Virus record (IMG/VR): IMGVR_UViG_3300045988_028566
Span: 1 to 6,327 of that record
Reading direction: 5' to 3' (one strand)
Length of the DNA stretch: 6,327 nucleotides
DNA from: a virus
A program made the position numbers and the translations under genes. Positions 56 to 6,327 of this stretch are shown in pieces. The notes beneath the pieces are model-generated. The model saw nothing but the letters and a program-made list of their open reading frames with translations, was not told the DNA's origin and made no database searches. Numbering within the stretch: position 1 is the stretch's first letter; every line of letters starts with the position of its first letter.

Positions 56-1092
56 CTGAATTGTACTACTTCCTTCCAACGCTGAAGATACTCGGTTGCA
101 CGGATTGAGAGAGCGGAAAGATCTGAATTTAAAAAAGCGTACTTAGCAGATCCAGCACTATTAGCTGGAGAGGCGACAACAGACGTACCATCGTTGGGGT
201 TAGTAATAGTGGCATAGCTACCTAAACGGAAATCAGTACCAAAAGCAACAGAAGTAGACTCGTGAGAAGAATTAATAGAAGGCAAAACAGCTACCGAACC
301 ATACTGAGAATTAGGGAGGATACCCATAAAATAATCTTTAGGGTAATTAGCATACCGAAGTTTTAACATATCAGGAACAACAGCCAGCTGTGATGTTCCA
401 TCCCAATAATCAACATTATAAGAATAGGCCAAATGTTTTTCCCATTGAGAACAGCTGAAAAAATCAAAATAGACTTTCTGGTACGCCAATAGCGGAAGCA
501 AATTTACAATCTGGGAAGACTTATAAACCAAAGGGTTATCAGCATCGGCAACATCAGTAAGACCTAAATATGATGCGGTAATTGCTTTTTTAGAAACATT
601 ATTACTAGCAAGAAATGAACCATAACCCAATAAATCCAAAATCTTACAAGAACCATATGAAAACGGGAGGCCAGCATCATCAAGCGTATCAGAACCAGAA
701 CCAACAACAAGAGCAAGAGTATTACTAATATTAACCAAAGTGGTATTAGGTACAGAAGTTAACATCTTAGTATTAGAAGTACCGCTATCGGCAGAGGTCA
801 TATAATCAGACATCTGAGTAAATGCCTGCGGAAGCGCACGGGAAATCAGACGTAACGGCACAGCGTAAAAATCATAATACTCTTTAATACGGGTATAAGC
901 AGCCGTATTAACAGGGACAGTACGGGTGAACCAATCAGAAGAAATACGATACTTATTACCAGGAATAGCAATCTGCCAATAACAAGGTAAAATTTCACCA
1001 ACCTTAGCAGTAAATAGCTTCTTCGAGCTTAAATCAAAAGATGACCGATGAGTAGCAATTCTCGCTCGATCGAGGGGATTAAAATCACTCAT
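1..1092 (-). CDS. VP1: Major capsid protein VP1 (phiX174 F-like), N-terminal 364 codons. Continues across the circular junction into 6272->5622.
   Basis: ATG at 1092-1090, then an open frame to base 1 (1092 nt, exactly 364 codons). Hand translation begins MSDFNPLDRARIATHRSSFDLSSKKLFTAKVGEILPCYWQIAIPGNKY, the usual microvirus capsid N-terminus (FDLS...G.L.P). The last codons at the window start read FSSKDYSDQMAAQFGIKAPE, which joins YMGNHSH at 6272 in frame. It is missing from the ORF track only because it runs off the window edge. Confidence 0.93.
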   Translation of the reverse strand, partial: MSDFNPLDRARIATHRSSFDLSSKKLFTAKVGEILPCYWQIAIPGNKYRISSDWFTRTVPVNTAAYTRIKEYYDFYAVPLRLISRALPQAFTQMSDYMTSADSGTSNTKMLTSVPNTTLVNISNTLALVVGSGSDTLDDAGLPFSYGSCKILDLLGYGSFLASNNVSKKAITASYLGLTDVADADNPLVYKSSQIVNLLPLLAYQKVYFDFFSCSQWEKHLAYSYNVDYWDGTSQLAVVPDMLKLRYANYPKDYFMGILPNSQYGSVAVLPSINSSHESTSVAFGTDFRLGSYATITNPNDGTSVVASPANSAGSAKYAFLNSDLSALSIRATEYLQRWKEVVQFSSKDYSDQMAAQFGIKAPE

Positions 1093-3423: not shown

Positions 3424-3454
3424 CAAATATACGAACTATTTTTATAATTCCAAA
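3424..3454 (-). promoter_or_regulatory. Bacteroidetes-type sigma-A promoter: -33 TTTG, 19-nt spacer, -7 TATATTTG (TAnnTTTG)
   Basis: The minus strand reads TTTG GAATTATAAAAATAGTTCG TATATTTG. TTTG is the complement of 3451-3454 and TATATTTG of 3424-3431. It sits in the only sizeable AT-rich non-coding stretch, about 50 nt upstream of ATG 3372. Both boxes and the spacing fit the published Bacteroides consensus. Confidence 0.55.
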
Positions 3455-3492
3455 AGAAATCTCTTTTTTTTTAGATTCTACCATAGAGTGTG

Positions 3493-3560
3493 AGTTGTGC
3501 GTTTATGGACGAGGGATGGAGAAATCGAGAAGATAACTCGATTTTGCTTCGCACACAACT
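3493..3560 (-). other. Nested stem-loop element: an interrupted outer stem enclosing a perfect 8-bp hairpin
   Basis: Outer stem is 3493-3501 (agttgtgcg) paired with 3550-3560 (cgcacacaact), 9 bp with a 2-nt bulge. Inner hairpin is 3522-3529 (aaatcgag) paired with 3537-3544 (ctcgattt), with the 7-nt loop aagataa (viral sense TTATCTT). The TAG stop of ORF 3559-3927 lies in the outer stem. Confidence 0.5.
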
Positions 3561-3927
3561 AGGGGCTTCGCTTAATTAACAAGAGGATGTATACAGAGGT
3601 GTATAGGCACGGCAGGTCAGATAGAACCTGCCTTTGCGCGCTCTGCGCTAAAATACCGGAGCGGGGCGCTCCTATAAGGAAGTCGCTCCGCTCCATTTTT
3701 AGACCAGGCCCTACGCGGGCGGCGGGTGTATATCGCTCAAACGCCGCGATGGGCTTTAAGTCCTGAAGAATGTTAGGATCTTTGGGATACAATGTGTAAG
3801 TATGCTCATATTTACGACACGTAGGAAGACTAGTCCAATATTCTATCCATTCCTTACACTGATCTAATGTACCAACATTACTAAACATAATTTTACGACC
3901 TACTTTAATACGAAGTTCAAACATCAT
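3559..3927 (-). CDS. Hypothetical protein, 122 aa as an open frame. Only the N-terminal 58 or so codons (3927->about 3754) look like genuine coding sequence.
   Basis: ATG at 3927 and TAG at 3561-3559. By hand count, codons 1-58 have T at the third position in 29 of 58, like the core genes. Codons 59-122 have 11 of 64 and coincide with the GC-rich hairpin island. Confidence 0.5.
   Translation of the reverse strand: MMFELRIKVGRKIMFSNVGTLDQCKEWIEYWTSLPTCRKYEHTYTLYPKDPNILQDLKPIAAFERYTPAARVGPGLKMERSDFLIGAPRSGILAQSAQRQVLSDLPCLYTSVYILLLIKRSP
3598..3754. other. GC-rich hairpin cluster, compositionally foreign; function unknown
   Basis: Four hairpins read by eye. H1 is 3611-3617/3626-3632 (ggcaggt/acctgcc, 7 bp). 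H2 is 3636-3639/3645-3648 (gcgc/gcgc), extendable through ttt/aaa. H3 is 3658-3668/3684-3694 (11 bp with one G-T), plus 4 more bp in the apical part. H4 is 3708-3721/3742-3754 (12 bp with bulges). 3601-3760 is 94/160 G+C against 54/160 in 3761-3920. GGTGTATA occurs at 3598-3605 and 3725-3732. Confidence 0.7.
3658..3700 (+). terminator. Terminator-like hairpin H3, best formed in plus (antisense) orientation, with an A-tract upstream and a T-tract downstream
   Basis: The plus strand reads ctAAAAtacc GGAGCGGGGCG-15 nt-CGCTCCGCTCC aTTTTTag. In minus sense the single G-T pair becomes a C/A mismatch, and the T-run (GGTATTTTAG) sits 4 nt from the stem. No credible plus-strand gene or promoter was found upstream. 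Confidence 0.3.
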
Positions 3928-3969: not shown

Positions 3970-4003
3970 CAAAGATAAGAAATAGTTTGCAAAGTACGAC
4001 AAA
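3970..4003 (-). promoter_or_regulatory. Weak candidate Bacteroidetes-type promoter upstream of ORF 3559-3927
   Basis: The minus strand has TATCTTTG (TAnnTTTG; complement of 3970-3977) with an upstream TTTG (complement of 4000-4003). The spacer is 22 nt, outside the usual 19-21. Confidence 0.3.
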
Positions 4004-4044: not shown

Positions 4045-4079
4045 AAAAAAAATCTTTCCCCCGATTCGCGGGGGAAAGA
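4045..4079 (-). terminator. Rho-independent terminator directly downstream of VP2
   Basis: Minus sense reads TCTTTCCCCCG CGAAT CGGGGGAAAGA followed by T8. That is a perfect 11-bp stem (4053-4063/4069-4079), a 5-nt loop and a U-tract (complement of A8 at 4045-4052). It starts 8 nt after the VP2 TAA stop (4090-4088). Confidence 0.8.
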
Positions 4080-5621: not shown

Positions 5622-6327
5622 TTAATAAGGTAAACCATTTCTATCCAAATTTTGGACAGCATATACCTGGAAATTAACATTACACAATAACTGATCAAAT
5701 GCAACAGAAGAATTCTGGCCTGAAACCTGAGGCTCAAAAATAGAATTCAATTGCTGAGGACGGACTTTCATGGACTGATAAGACCAAGAACCAGAAGAAG
5801 TCAAAACATCCCAACCATCAATAGGAGCGGACCAAGACTGGTAGGCCAGACCAGAACGGAAACCAGCATGAACGGTATCAATATTAGATTTCCATTGCCA
5901 ATAGCGCAAATTATAGCCAATCGAGGCAGGAACAGAACGACTAGGATTATTATGAAGATTCAAGCCAGGAACAGCCTGCATGCCCAATTGGTCAAATGCA
6001 GGTTGAGGAAAGTCAGATATAGAAGAAACGGTCAATTGAGGATTTTGACCTGTCAAATTCCAATCTACCAAAGGGACAGCATGATAAACACAAATAATCA
6101 CCTGATGCTCGGCACCACAATCATAAGTAATAGTATGACCAGAATTAGAACCAACACCTTTACCAGCAATAACAGCCTGAGAATTATCAGCAGTAAGATT
6201 CGTATTAAGAACCTCATTAATATTAATTACACTGGACCAACCACCAATATAGTGAGAATGATTGCCCATATATTCGGGAGCTTTAATACCGAACTGAGCG
6301 GCCATCTGATCTGAATAGTCCTTACTA
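5622..6327 (-). CDS. VP1: Major capsid protein VP1, C-terminal part (216 aa plus stop in 5622-6272). 6273-6327 repeats codons already counted at 1-55.
   Basis: Position 6272 is a first codon position in the frame of the tracked ORF 5622-6305, whose M is an internal Met. The joined gene is 1092+651=1743 nt, giving 580 aa and a TAA stop at 5624-5622. Confidence 0.93.
   Translation of the reverse strand, partial: SKDYSDQMAAQFGIKAPEYMGNHSHYIGGWSSVININEVLNTNLTADNSQAVIAGKGVGSNSGHTITYDCGAEHQVIICVYHAVPLVDWNLTGQNPQLTVSSISDFPQPAFDQLGMQAVPGLNLHNNPSRSVPASIGYNLRYWQWKSNIDTVHAGFRSGLAYQSWSAPIDGWDVLTSSGSWSYQSMKVRPQQLNSIFEPQVSGQNSSVAFDQLLCNVNFQVYAVQNLDRNGLPY
6273..6327. repeat. Terminal redundancy, right copy. 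Duplicates bases 1-55.
   Basis: Exact 55-nt identity with the window start. The capsid reading frame is continuous across the 1/6272 junction. Confidence 0.97.

Follow-up and report, generated by a model that had tools for sequence, protein, structure and literature searches.

How do microviruses outside the phiX174/G4 group start their complementary strand? Microviruses of this kind are among the most abundant phages of the gut. One locus that raises the question lies in IMG/VR virus record IMGVR_UViG_3300045988_028566, whose 6,327 nucleotides (hereafter, the window) make up the entire circular genome of a microvirus, with ends that overlap by 57 nt, positions 1-57 being repeated at 6271-6327. 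An interpretation made earlier from the letters alone (the sequence-only reading) noticed a G+C-rich island of four hairpins, H1 to H4, in this AT-rich genome. It took a minus-strand origin as its leading hypothesis and listed a structured RNA, a host-derived palindromic repeat and an attachment sequence as alternatives. Is the island real, what does it fold into, how widely is it shared, and which function fits it best? The present analysis defines a covariation-supported element of ~300 nt, composed of two modules and found in hundreds of gut microvirus genomes.

The observed G+C-rich hairpin island is confirmed. Its G+C content is 58.8% (3601-3760), as compared to 33.8% at 3761-3920 and 37.5% at 3441-3600, in agreement with the earlier hand counts. 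Every recognisable gene of the window is on the minus strand, and the island therefore folds in the viral/mRNA sense; the packaged strand of Microviridae has the sense of the mRNA, so that the reverse complement of the window is viral strand and transcript sense alike. In relatives, the island starts 2-3 nt past the stop-codon position of the upstream gene. Folded as DNA, 3600-3756 on the minus strand gave -40.4 kcal/mol, versus -26.8 +/- 2.9 in 200 dinucleotide shuffles (z -4.67, 0/200), and folded as RNA it gave -71.1 versus -53.8 +/- 3.9 (z -4.48). The wider stretch 3480-3770 yielded z values of -4.7 and -4.85, one per strand. In all four comparisons, shuffled controls were far less stable (z -4.48 to -4.85), contrary to the possibility, raised in the sequence-only reading, that they would fold equally well.

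Comparison with related genomes showed that the structure is real and under selection. Alignment A1 comprised 105 copies in the viral-strand sense, in which covarying column pairs were sought without an assumed structure and an explicit model was then counted. The whole-element model had 96.9% of its cells paired, as compared to 22-46% when the partners were slid, and double-sided changes occurred at 21 of 51 pairs, versus 10.4 +/- 1.3 in shuffles (0/500). The first search key had forced invariance at 3707-3729, and copies from other keys were added; alignment A4 consisted of 47 representatives of 128 distinct island copies. Here, 98.8% of island cells were paired (26-51% in slid controls), with double changes at 11/28 pairs against 4.8 +/- 1.2 in shuffles (0/500). 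The island cells held 86 double changes and four wobbles. For the adjoining 3' module, described below, 62 sequences were 98% paired, with double changes at 12 of 19 pairs (6.2 +/- 0.9 in shuffles) and 124 double-change cells to no wobble cell. Over both modules, 210 double-change cells stand against 4 single-sided wobble cells. The compensatory substitutions for which the sequence-only reading had proposed to search related microviruses are therefore present, and the structure that they point to has five or six short hairpins together with two stems that cross.

The inverted repeats listed in the sequence-only reading do occur in the window. Not all four of the stems drawn from them survived this comparison. 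H1 and H2, our hairpins E and D (Table 1), were supported by compensatory changes, whereas H3 and H4 were replaced by other pairings. Hairpin E showed double changes at 4 of its 6 scored pairs (e.g. G-C 25 / A-U 22 in A4). Hairpin D takes the form GCAC-GGA-GTGC in relatives or has a GNNG loop; its pair 138:144 was A-T in 78 and G-C in 27 copies, with no wobble, and its loop reads C-GGA-G in 31/105 copies and AGA in the window. H4, the minimum-energy stem over 3708-3750, was without a double change, was broken in as many as 14/47 cells and was rejected, its place being taken by hairpin A and two short crossing stems, S1 and B, at 3708-3724. The diagnostic pair of hairpin A was G-C in 93, A-T in 6 and C-G in 4 copies of A1, without a mismatch, and G-C in 31, A-U in 10 and C-G in 4 of A4. 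S1 and B switched at pairs 60:70 (C:G to T:A in 5 and G:C in 5), 65:75 (C:G to G:C in 3) and 67:73 (C:G to T:A in 4), and no single-sided variant of these three pairs was present among 102 distinct copies. Judging from the covariation, the two stems make up a very compact pseudoknot or else alternate with each other as separate hairpins. An outer stem proposed by RNAalifold, GCCC(30-33)/GGGC(73-76), was contradicted by the variant GGCC.

For H3, the comparison favoured a shorter structure. The invariant and apparently unpaired motif GGAGCGRAGCGAC is able to pair with the CGCTCC of hairpin C, and this pairing is the long H3 (3658-3694) that exists in the minimum-energy fold. However, pair 113:125, diagnostic for hairpin C (G-C 65 / A-T 36), favours the short hairpin over the long stem, which would contain G.T in 19/47 and C.A in 24/47 representatives. 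Pair 96:120 of the long stem also covaries (G-C 37 / A-U 5 in the 47 representatives), and the long H3 is weakly supported and may be kept as a possible alternative conformer. Hairpin C, with 6 bp, together with the following GGTATTTTAG passes a loose terminator scan with a T run of only four, and it looks like a weak terminator. Hairpin F is optional: 95.5% of its cells were paired, and it is missing from Dulem virus 254-type genomes. About 15 genomes (L003, L012, L041, L043, L045, L052, L077, L081, L083, L088, L089, L092, L098, L104 and L113) have an extra hairpin of ~35 nt, CCCTAGATCTATTAGTAATGGATCTAGG, inserted between F and mini-hairpin H, whereas the insertion common to L115 and L141 at this junction is another one, of ~150-170 nt.

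The island proved to be only part of the element. The sequence-only reading missed this, as well as a more widely conserved core just outside the coordinates of the island. The island is the clade-specific, dispensable 5' half of a two-part element whose 3' half lies at 3494-3575, and this adjoining 3' module is the more important object. It contains two mini-hairpins, H and J, a long-range helix, I, and hairpin K (Table 1). H is GCGAAGC in 102/105 copies, and its variants GCGGAGC and ACGAAGT keep the closing pairs. J occurs as GCGAAGC, CCGAAGG (the second commonest form), ACGAAGT and GCGAAAGC, with a closing pair of G-C in 59, C-G in 32 and A-T in 8. The loop of K is TTATCnT across copies; the window's TTATCTT may resemble pC194-type nick sites.

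Genomes that lack one or the other part show how separable the modules are. Four complete genomes (L127, L135, L141 and L147) keep the 3' module, lack the island, and carry a plain hairpin and T-run instead. In L122 nothing of the island is left but the surroundings of hairpin C, with six T behind it. Covariance model R2, built on the island, had no match in island-free genomes, in Bacteroides phage phiHBP1 or in eight more distant microviruses. Since the Rep proteins of L147, L122 and L127, none of which has an intact island, are 89%, 87% and 83% identical to that of the window, the island is a dispensable, clade-specific cassette. The spacing of the modules also varies, L115 having ~170 nt inserted between them. 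L021 (IMGVR_UViG_3300045988_008295; 5,961 nt) shows only hairpins A and B, then the A-run, around 1-60; hairpins C-F and all of the 3' module are missing. Either the contig is mis-assembled at its end, or it represents a viable deletion variant, in which case it would weaken any claim that the 3' module is essential.

The 3' module reaches much farther than the island. Covariance model R1, which is informative only at positions 213-296, matched phiHBP1 (2329-2417; 29.5 bits, E 2e-8), bajarodmic virus 1134 (42.7 bits, E 3e-11) and Dipodfec virus RodF1_24 (23.3 bits, E 7e-6). All three matches lie in the gap 3' of the pilot-protein gene, in genomes with a Rep only ~28-32% identical to that of the window. 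To judge from this distribution, the 3' module is much older than the island, and its persistence over such distances suggests a conserved, slowly evolving host partner. The Rep-alignment search returned close relatives only (72-92% identity), and the breadth therefore comes from eight GenBank genomes. Heptamers of the form SCGNAGS on the viral strand of eight divergent genomes numbered 17 in 4.4 kb of post-pilot gaps, as compared to 3 in 46 kb elsewhere, an enrichment of ~60-fold (p = 8e-16) in counts that are partly non-independent, H and J being homologous positions. Of the eight divergent GenBank microviruses (L192-L199), seven have an unannotated gap of 300-600 nt right 3' of the pilot gene, and L194 has a capsid-only annotation; several of the gaps are G+C-rich (L192 4021-4230, 0.65) and hold GCGAAGC-type heptamers even where R1 has no homolog. 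Throughout this large group, a structured non-coding region may commonly follow the pilot gene.

The host of phiHBP1 is B. fragilis, and its authors present the phage as the first isolated microvirus infecting Bacteroidota; their paper makes no mention of the region of the 3' module. The core that it has in common with the window makes function directly testable in a cultured phage. In phiHBP1 (L151, PV598014) a different G+C-rich hairpin stretch (2390-2600; 0.56-0.60 G+C) precedes the module. A 'hypothetical protein' coding sequence (CDS), 2326-2736, covers terminator, hairpin stretch and 3' module together; it contains the mini-hairpins GCGAAGC (twice), ACGAAGT and CCGGAAGG and is probably a spurious open reading frame (ORF).

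Among GenBank phages, blastn matched the block 3488-3763 to 34 records with 73-87% identity; most of these lack annotation, and they come from lemur Dulem viruses, dog-faeces Microviridae and a human microvirus. A 25-nt island pattern occurred in 102 IMG/VR contigs and a 3'-end pattern in at least 120; at least 119 metagenome contigs with the pattern, mostly from human gut, were all 9.6 kb or shorter. Microvirus-sized contigs with the island total more than 250, and in the scans run the element turned up on DNA of this size alone. It is always single-copy, on one strand, at one site and in one orientation. Several IMG/VR contigs (L027, L099) are broken by assembly inside the element, which creates apparent tandem partial duplications.

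What might such an element do? We tentatively favour the reading in which the island acts as single-stranded DNA, an exchangeable cassette of hairpins that helps to prime the complementary strand. The minus-strand origin of the sequence-only reading is partly supported and stays the leading hypothesis, unproven and in need of refinement, for a region that is non-coding, folds on the packaged strand, shows stem covariation, belongs to no Rfam family and adjoins a mini-hairpin module. Two points of this reading are inferred, namely a folded molecule of DNA, not RNA, and a function in priming. On incoming viral DNA coated with single-strand-binding protein (SSB), very stable hairpins would stay folded and free of SSB, and the region could then act as a signal for complementary-strand synthesis. 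The older 3' module, with its two C(GAA)G mini-hairpins, long-range helix, CCCCTAGTT and GTCYATAAACG, may be the recognition and start site for a slowly evolving host priming enzyme. The island would supply auxiliary, exchangeable helper hairpins that position or stimulate priming and raise its efficiency or host specificity. The parallel would be with G4-origin hairpins II and III, or with the interchangeable single-strand origin (sso) cassettes on rolling-circle plasmids. Transcription of the upstream gene perhaps also ends at hairpin C and its T-run.

Several observations lean to DNA. The loops of H (GCGAAGC), J (C(GAA)G variants) and D (C-GGA-G) are mini-hairpin DNA sequences, and such hairpins are exceptionally stable as DNA and are reported at the G4 primase site (GCGAAAGC), at St-1, alpha3 and RSF1010 ssiA (CCGAAGG), and at the N4 promoters (PMC13037366). 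The ~60-fold density of SCGNAGS heptamers in the post-pilot gaps points the same way. If the DNA reading is true, the link between mini-hairpin DNA and priming sites extends from enterobacterial replicons to Bacteroidota phages. A G.T pair is a mismatch in DNA, whereas G.U is tolerated in RNA, and the scarcity of wobble cells beside so many double changes therefore fits DNA. The island also behaves as a cassette: it keeps to one strand and site, is present or absent among close relatives, occurs as sub-modules alone (L021, L122), and lies at variable spacing from the 3' module.

The closest parallels are the primase-dependent origins (oric) of G4, St-1 and alpha3, where several stable stem-loops are likewise clustered in non-coding viral-strand DNA of a microvirus. 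At such sites primase makes its primer from a defined start trinucleotide on SSB-coated DNA, whereas the phiX174-type primosome assembly site is a hairpin of ~55 nt that PriA binds with activation of its ATPase, a recognition of a structural and biochemical kind. Similar to G4 oric, the element has a mini-hairpin of the type GCGNAGC / GCGAAAGC beside a conserved pyrimidine-rich motif, with auxiliary hairpins upstream: G4 reads GCGAAAGC...CCCTACTG and the window GCGAAGC-CCCCTAGTT. In G4, as we confirmed, the annotated primer template includes GCGAAAGC, with CCCTACTG following just 3' of it. As in the G4-type and single-strand initiation (ssi) sites, the stem-loop cluster is on the packaged strand, in non-coding DNA, and more stable than chance. 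A mini-hairpin GCGNAGC / GCGNNAGC is present twice in the adjoining 3' module (at H and J), and in the island only as the C-GGA-G of hairpin D in 31 of 105 relatives. In contrast to G4 oric, which lies between F and G, the window element follows the pilot-protein gene; it is ~300 nt long, in two parts, with a long-range helix and crossing stems; its presumed host is one of the Bacteroidota; priming is here a proposal; and the island proper is without canonical mini-hairpins. Local alignment to G4 oric gave no evidence of homology against shuffles (p = 0.72), and a shared 9-mer, CCGTGCCTA (235-246 of L114, the G4 sequence, and 3603-3611 of the window, both just 3' of a hairpin), was set aside, ~0.17 such matches being expected by chance (an estimate).

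The plasmid sso (ssoA, ssoU, ssoT, ssoW) resemble the island in its presence or absence and modular cassette behaviour. They are 130-300 nt long, highly structured, non-coding, orientation-dependent and non-essential, and are exchanged as cassettes between replicons. The island, too, is fixed in orientation, dispensable (absent beside 83-89% identical Rep) and able to occur in parts. It differs in being a phage rather than a plasmid element, without a plasmid match. The sso CS-6 motif TAGCGT is not conserved in the element, which has TAGCGC in 27/105 and TAGCAC in 78/105 copies, and no RSB-like site was identified in it. In RSF1010 ssiA/ssiB, a primase-recognised hairpin is capped by CCGAAGG, the same string as the second commonest form of J; these sites, however, are ~40 nt long and served by a plasmid-encoded primase, and a Pfam search of the window proteins showed no such gene.

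Two further comparisons can be made. Conserved intergenic hairpins with compensatory substitutions were predicted in the metagenomic reekeekee- and roodoodoo-microviruses and proposed as candidate minus-strand origins that 'cannot be certified' (PMC9865509). The clades concerned are unrelated, and their hairpins are simple, 13-64 nt long, and number one or two. The window element, by comparison, comprises two modules with about ten helices in all; it is sampled in more than 250 genomes and has a cultured relative. The intergenic region of M13/f1 is alike in that the window's Rep is in the Pfam family that includes gene II protein, and differs in that virion and packaging biology of the two phage groups are unlike. 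It is a hairpin-packed non-coding stretch that serves several DNA-level functions side by side. No description of the present element was found in the literature. It would appear to work like the G4-type or sso families without belonging to either, and it is best filed as a structured element of the single-strand initiation or origin type, although the chance that it is a new RNA is real.

That chance must be weighed because several findings count against a priming cassette. Viral strand and mRNA have the same sense, so that strand arguments cannot separate a DNA from an RNA function, and every structural result fits RNA equally. Island-free sisters (L147, L122 and L127) carry a plain hairpin with a T-run there; the island is thus dispensable, and termination is the only function for which a substitute can be seen. 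Regulatory RNA is where stems that cross, and rival partners such as the two for CGCTCC, are more typical. The canonical mini-hairpins are in the 3' module, outside the island, and the loop of hairpin D in the window is AGA. No significant similarity to the G4 or M13 origin regions was seen (p = 0.37-0.79), and L021, if correctly assembled, keeps hairpins A and B only.

The main rival explanation, somewhat less probable in our estimation, is that the island is a structured RNA at the 3' untranslated end of the upstream-gene transcript, be it that of the pilot protein or of the small ORF. Such an RNA could serve as a terminator or insulator, as an mRNA stabiliser or as a source of a non-coding RNA, and its alternative pairings could form a switch. 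The position suits this explanation, since the island begins 2-3 nt past a stop codon in nearly all genomes and 5' of the next promoter. Hairpin C with TATTTT was picked up by the terminator scan (six T follow in L122), a canonical terminator stands at the exact same place in the island-free sisters, and S1/B with the two CGCTCC partners resembles pseudoknots and switches. The RNA-parameter fold is also far better than shuffles. Nevertheless, no Rfam family matched 3450-3800 even at E up to 10, as the Rfam search suggested by the sequence-only reading showed, and a tRNA/tmRNA search was also empty. At ~160-190 nt with long invariant unpaired motifs, the island goes well beyond what termination needs, and island-bearing genomes have no viral-strand T-run of five or more. 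The window retains the island after its next small ORF in spite of the strong terminator that follows the pilot gene, and termination alone is therefore an insufficient explanation. G.U intermediates are nearly absent (4 versus 210 double changes), and triloops dominate, with no UNCG loop and GNRA as a minor variant only, which is unusual for a selected RNA fold.

A more specific version, which we regard as decidedly doubtful, would make the island a functional structured RNA of a new family, a compact pseudoknot with a two-state helix that is released from the 3' end of the late transcript and acts in trans; a host factor or a defence system might, for instance, be titrated by it. The near-absence of wobbles and the triloop bias argue against this as well, and we know of no trans-acting structured RNA of such a kind in Microviridae.

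Less likely still is a signal read by the phage Rep, which could be the rolling-circle origin of the viral strand, the corresponding termination site or a signal for packaging. HUH-nuclease nick sites usually have stems on either side of long unpaired motifs, and GTCYATAAACG and the TTATC loop of K are invariant motifs with this layout; the window's Rep matches Pfam REP_ORF2-G2P, and conservation of the 3' module extends over the clade and farther. This explanation is plausible for the 3' module only, as Reps 83-89% identical to that of the window do without the island and hence do not need it. A supposed similarity between CTCTTGTCCATAAACGCACAACTCAC and the M13 plus origin proved no better than shuffles on alignment (p = 0.37-0.79), and the CTTG motif reads CTCG in the window itself.

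Very improbable is the suggestion, also made in the sequence-only reading, that the island is a host-derived or mobile palindromic element, similar to repetitive extragenic palindromic (REP) sequences or miniature inverted-repeat transposable elements (MITEs), or an attachment or dif-like site. It would account for G+C-rich palindromes within an AT-rich genome and for presence/absence polymorphism among relatives. However, the exact pattern GGAGCGRAGCGACN{18,34}GGTANTTTAGC had no match in 185,579 bacterial and archaeal genomes, one per species, blastn found none among 72,556 plasmids, and the metagenome contigs do not exceed 9.6 kb. The REP-like proposal is thus rejected, and the attachment site gains no support, no integrated or prophage copy of the island pattern having appeared in a genome scan that did not include the dif consensus itself. 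In some relatives hairpin D and its linker read GGTGCGCAAAG, which is close to the XerC arm of E. coli dif; this string covaries as a stem and is not in the window, and the dif-like reading was rejected. The constant single copy, site and orientation also speak against a mobile repeat.

As a separate observation on the host, L136 (IMG/VR contig 3300029016_000046) encodes at 11781-13026 a type I-C CRISPR-Cas system (Cas5d, Csd1, Cas7, Cas4, Cas1), whose array is also in L143. The repeat, GTCACACCCTACGTGGGTGTGTGGATTGAAAC, occurs at least 19 times in L136 and had no match in the 185,579 reference genomes. At least 12 of the 18 spacers match microviruses of the island clade, three of them at 100% over the full length, and one (TTGTCTATAAACGTTGAACTCACACA) matches the 3' module, where it is preceded in L013 by TTC, presumably the type I-C protospacer adjacent motif. 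Judging from these spacers, the contig is from a true host of island-clade microviruses.

The island is non-coding, although ORF122, which the sequence-only reading did not mention, runs through it. The first ~55 codons of this ORF (3763-3927) correspond to a 50-codon gene annotated in Dulem viruses 254 and 255 that ends just before the island, and the remainder is read-through. The window has GACTTAAAG where relatives have GACTAAGAG or GACTAGAAG, a 1-nt difference that removes the usual stop and lets ORF122 read into the island: GAC TTA AAG stands in place of the GAC TAA or GAC TAG that ends the upstream gene in most relatives. Most other relatives have the island directly 3' of the pilot-protein stop, and the C-terminus of the small gene (..LQD) resembles that of the pilot protein in relatives without the small gene. 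The uninterrupted 122 codons, and an overlapping ORF annotated in Dulem virus 242, could suggest that the island is the C-terminal half of a protein, but this is hardly tenable and was rejected: island length modulo 3 is spread 42/39/24 across 105 copies with frequent 1-nt indels, the window's frame stays open to the island end in only 23/104 relatives with first stops scattered, Pfam shows no match for ORF122, and variation tracks base-pairing rather than codons. The sequence-only reading had set against its own proposal the case that relatives keep an intact coding sequence without stem covariation; here, the frame is scattered and the stems covary. Taken together, the host-repeat, attachment-site and coding explanations are most improbable, and the ORFs called across the island in the window and in Dulem virus 242, and probably the phiHBP1 CDS, are likely spurious.

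Table 1. Features of the window, in window coordinates; sequences are given in the viral-strand sense.
Feature	Position	Strand	Remarks
G+C-rich island, 5' module (hairpins A, S1/B, C, D, E)	3600-3756	-	Composition, folding, covariation, covariance model R2
Hairpin A	3732-3736/3746-3750	-	ATCGC / GCGAT, 9-nt loop GGCGTTTGA
S1	3722-3724 with 3714-3716	-	CGC/GCG, crosses B
B	3717-3720 with 3708-3711	-	GCCC/GGGC, crosses S1
Motif GGAGCGRAGCGAC	3682-3694	-	Invariant alignment columns, apparently unpaired
Hairpin C	3658-3663/3667-3672	-	GGAGCG-CCC-CGCTCC, then GGTATTTTAG
Hairpin D (H2)	3638-3641/3645-3648	-	GCGC-AGA-GCGC, 4 bp
Hairpin E (H1)	3611-3617/3626-3632	-	GGCAGGT / ACCTGCC, 7 bp, 8-nt loop; inverted repeat
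Hairpin F, optional	3590-3595/3600-3605	-	TATACA-CCTC-TGTATA
Mini-hairpin H	3565-3571	-	GCGAAGC, then invariant CCCCTAGTT
Long-range helix I	3553-3559 with 3494-3500	-	Encloses J, K, pyrimidine tract and invariant GTCYATAAACG
Mini-hairpin J	3546-3552	-	GCGAAGC
Hairpin K	3522-3529/3537-3544	-	Loop TTATCTT
A-run closing the element	3464-3472	-	Just 5' of next promoter; kept in two alignments of relatives and in phiHBP1
Promoter match, Bacteroidetes type (TTTG ... TAtaTTTG)	3424-3454	-	Would serve ORF65, peptidase and Rep genes
Promoter match, Bacteroidetes type	3970-4003	-	5' of small ORF preceding island; kept in Dulem viruses 254 and 255
Canonical intrinsic terminator	4053-4079	-	Perfect 11-bp stem, then eight T, directly 3' of pilot-protein stop
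ORF122	3559-3927	-	122 codons, runs through island
Pilot protein	5170-4088	-	
Putative scaffold protein	5616-5167	-	
Major capsid protein	1092-1, continuing 6270-5622	-	
Rep	2790-1111	-	Pfam REP_ORF2-G2P match
M15 peptidase	3171-2800	-	
Two small ORFs		-	

The genes and signals around the element agree with the earlier placement of the island between two candidate promoters, Bacteroidetes-type matches lying on both sides of it (Table 1). The promoter pattern TTTG-N15-23-TAnnTTTG had three matches in the window, all on the coding strand, as compared to 0.54 expected; the third is at 499-532 (-), within the capsid gene. The terminator behind the pilot-protein gene gave a weak, sub-threshold Rfam match to CRISPR-DR57.

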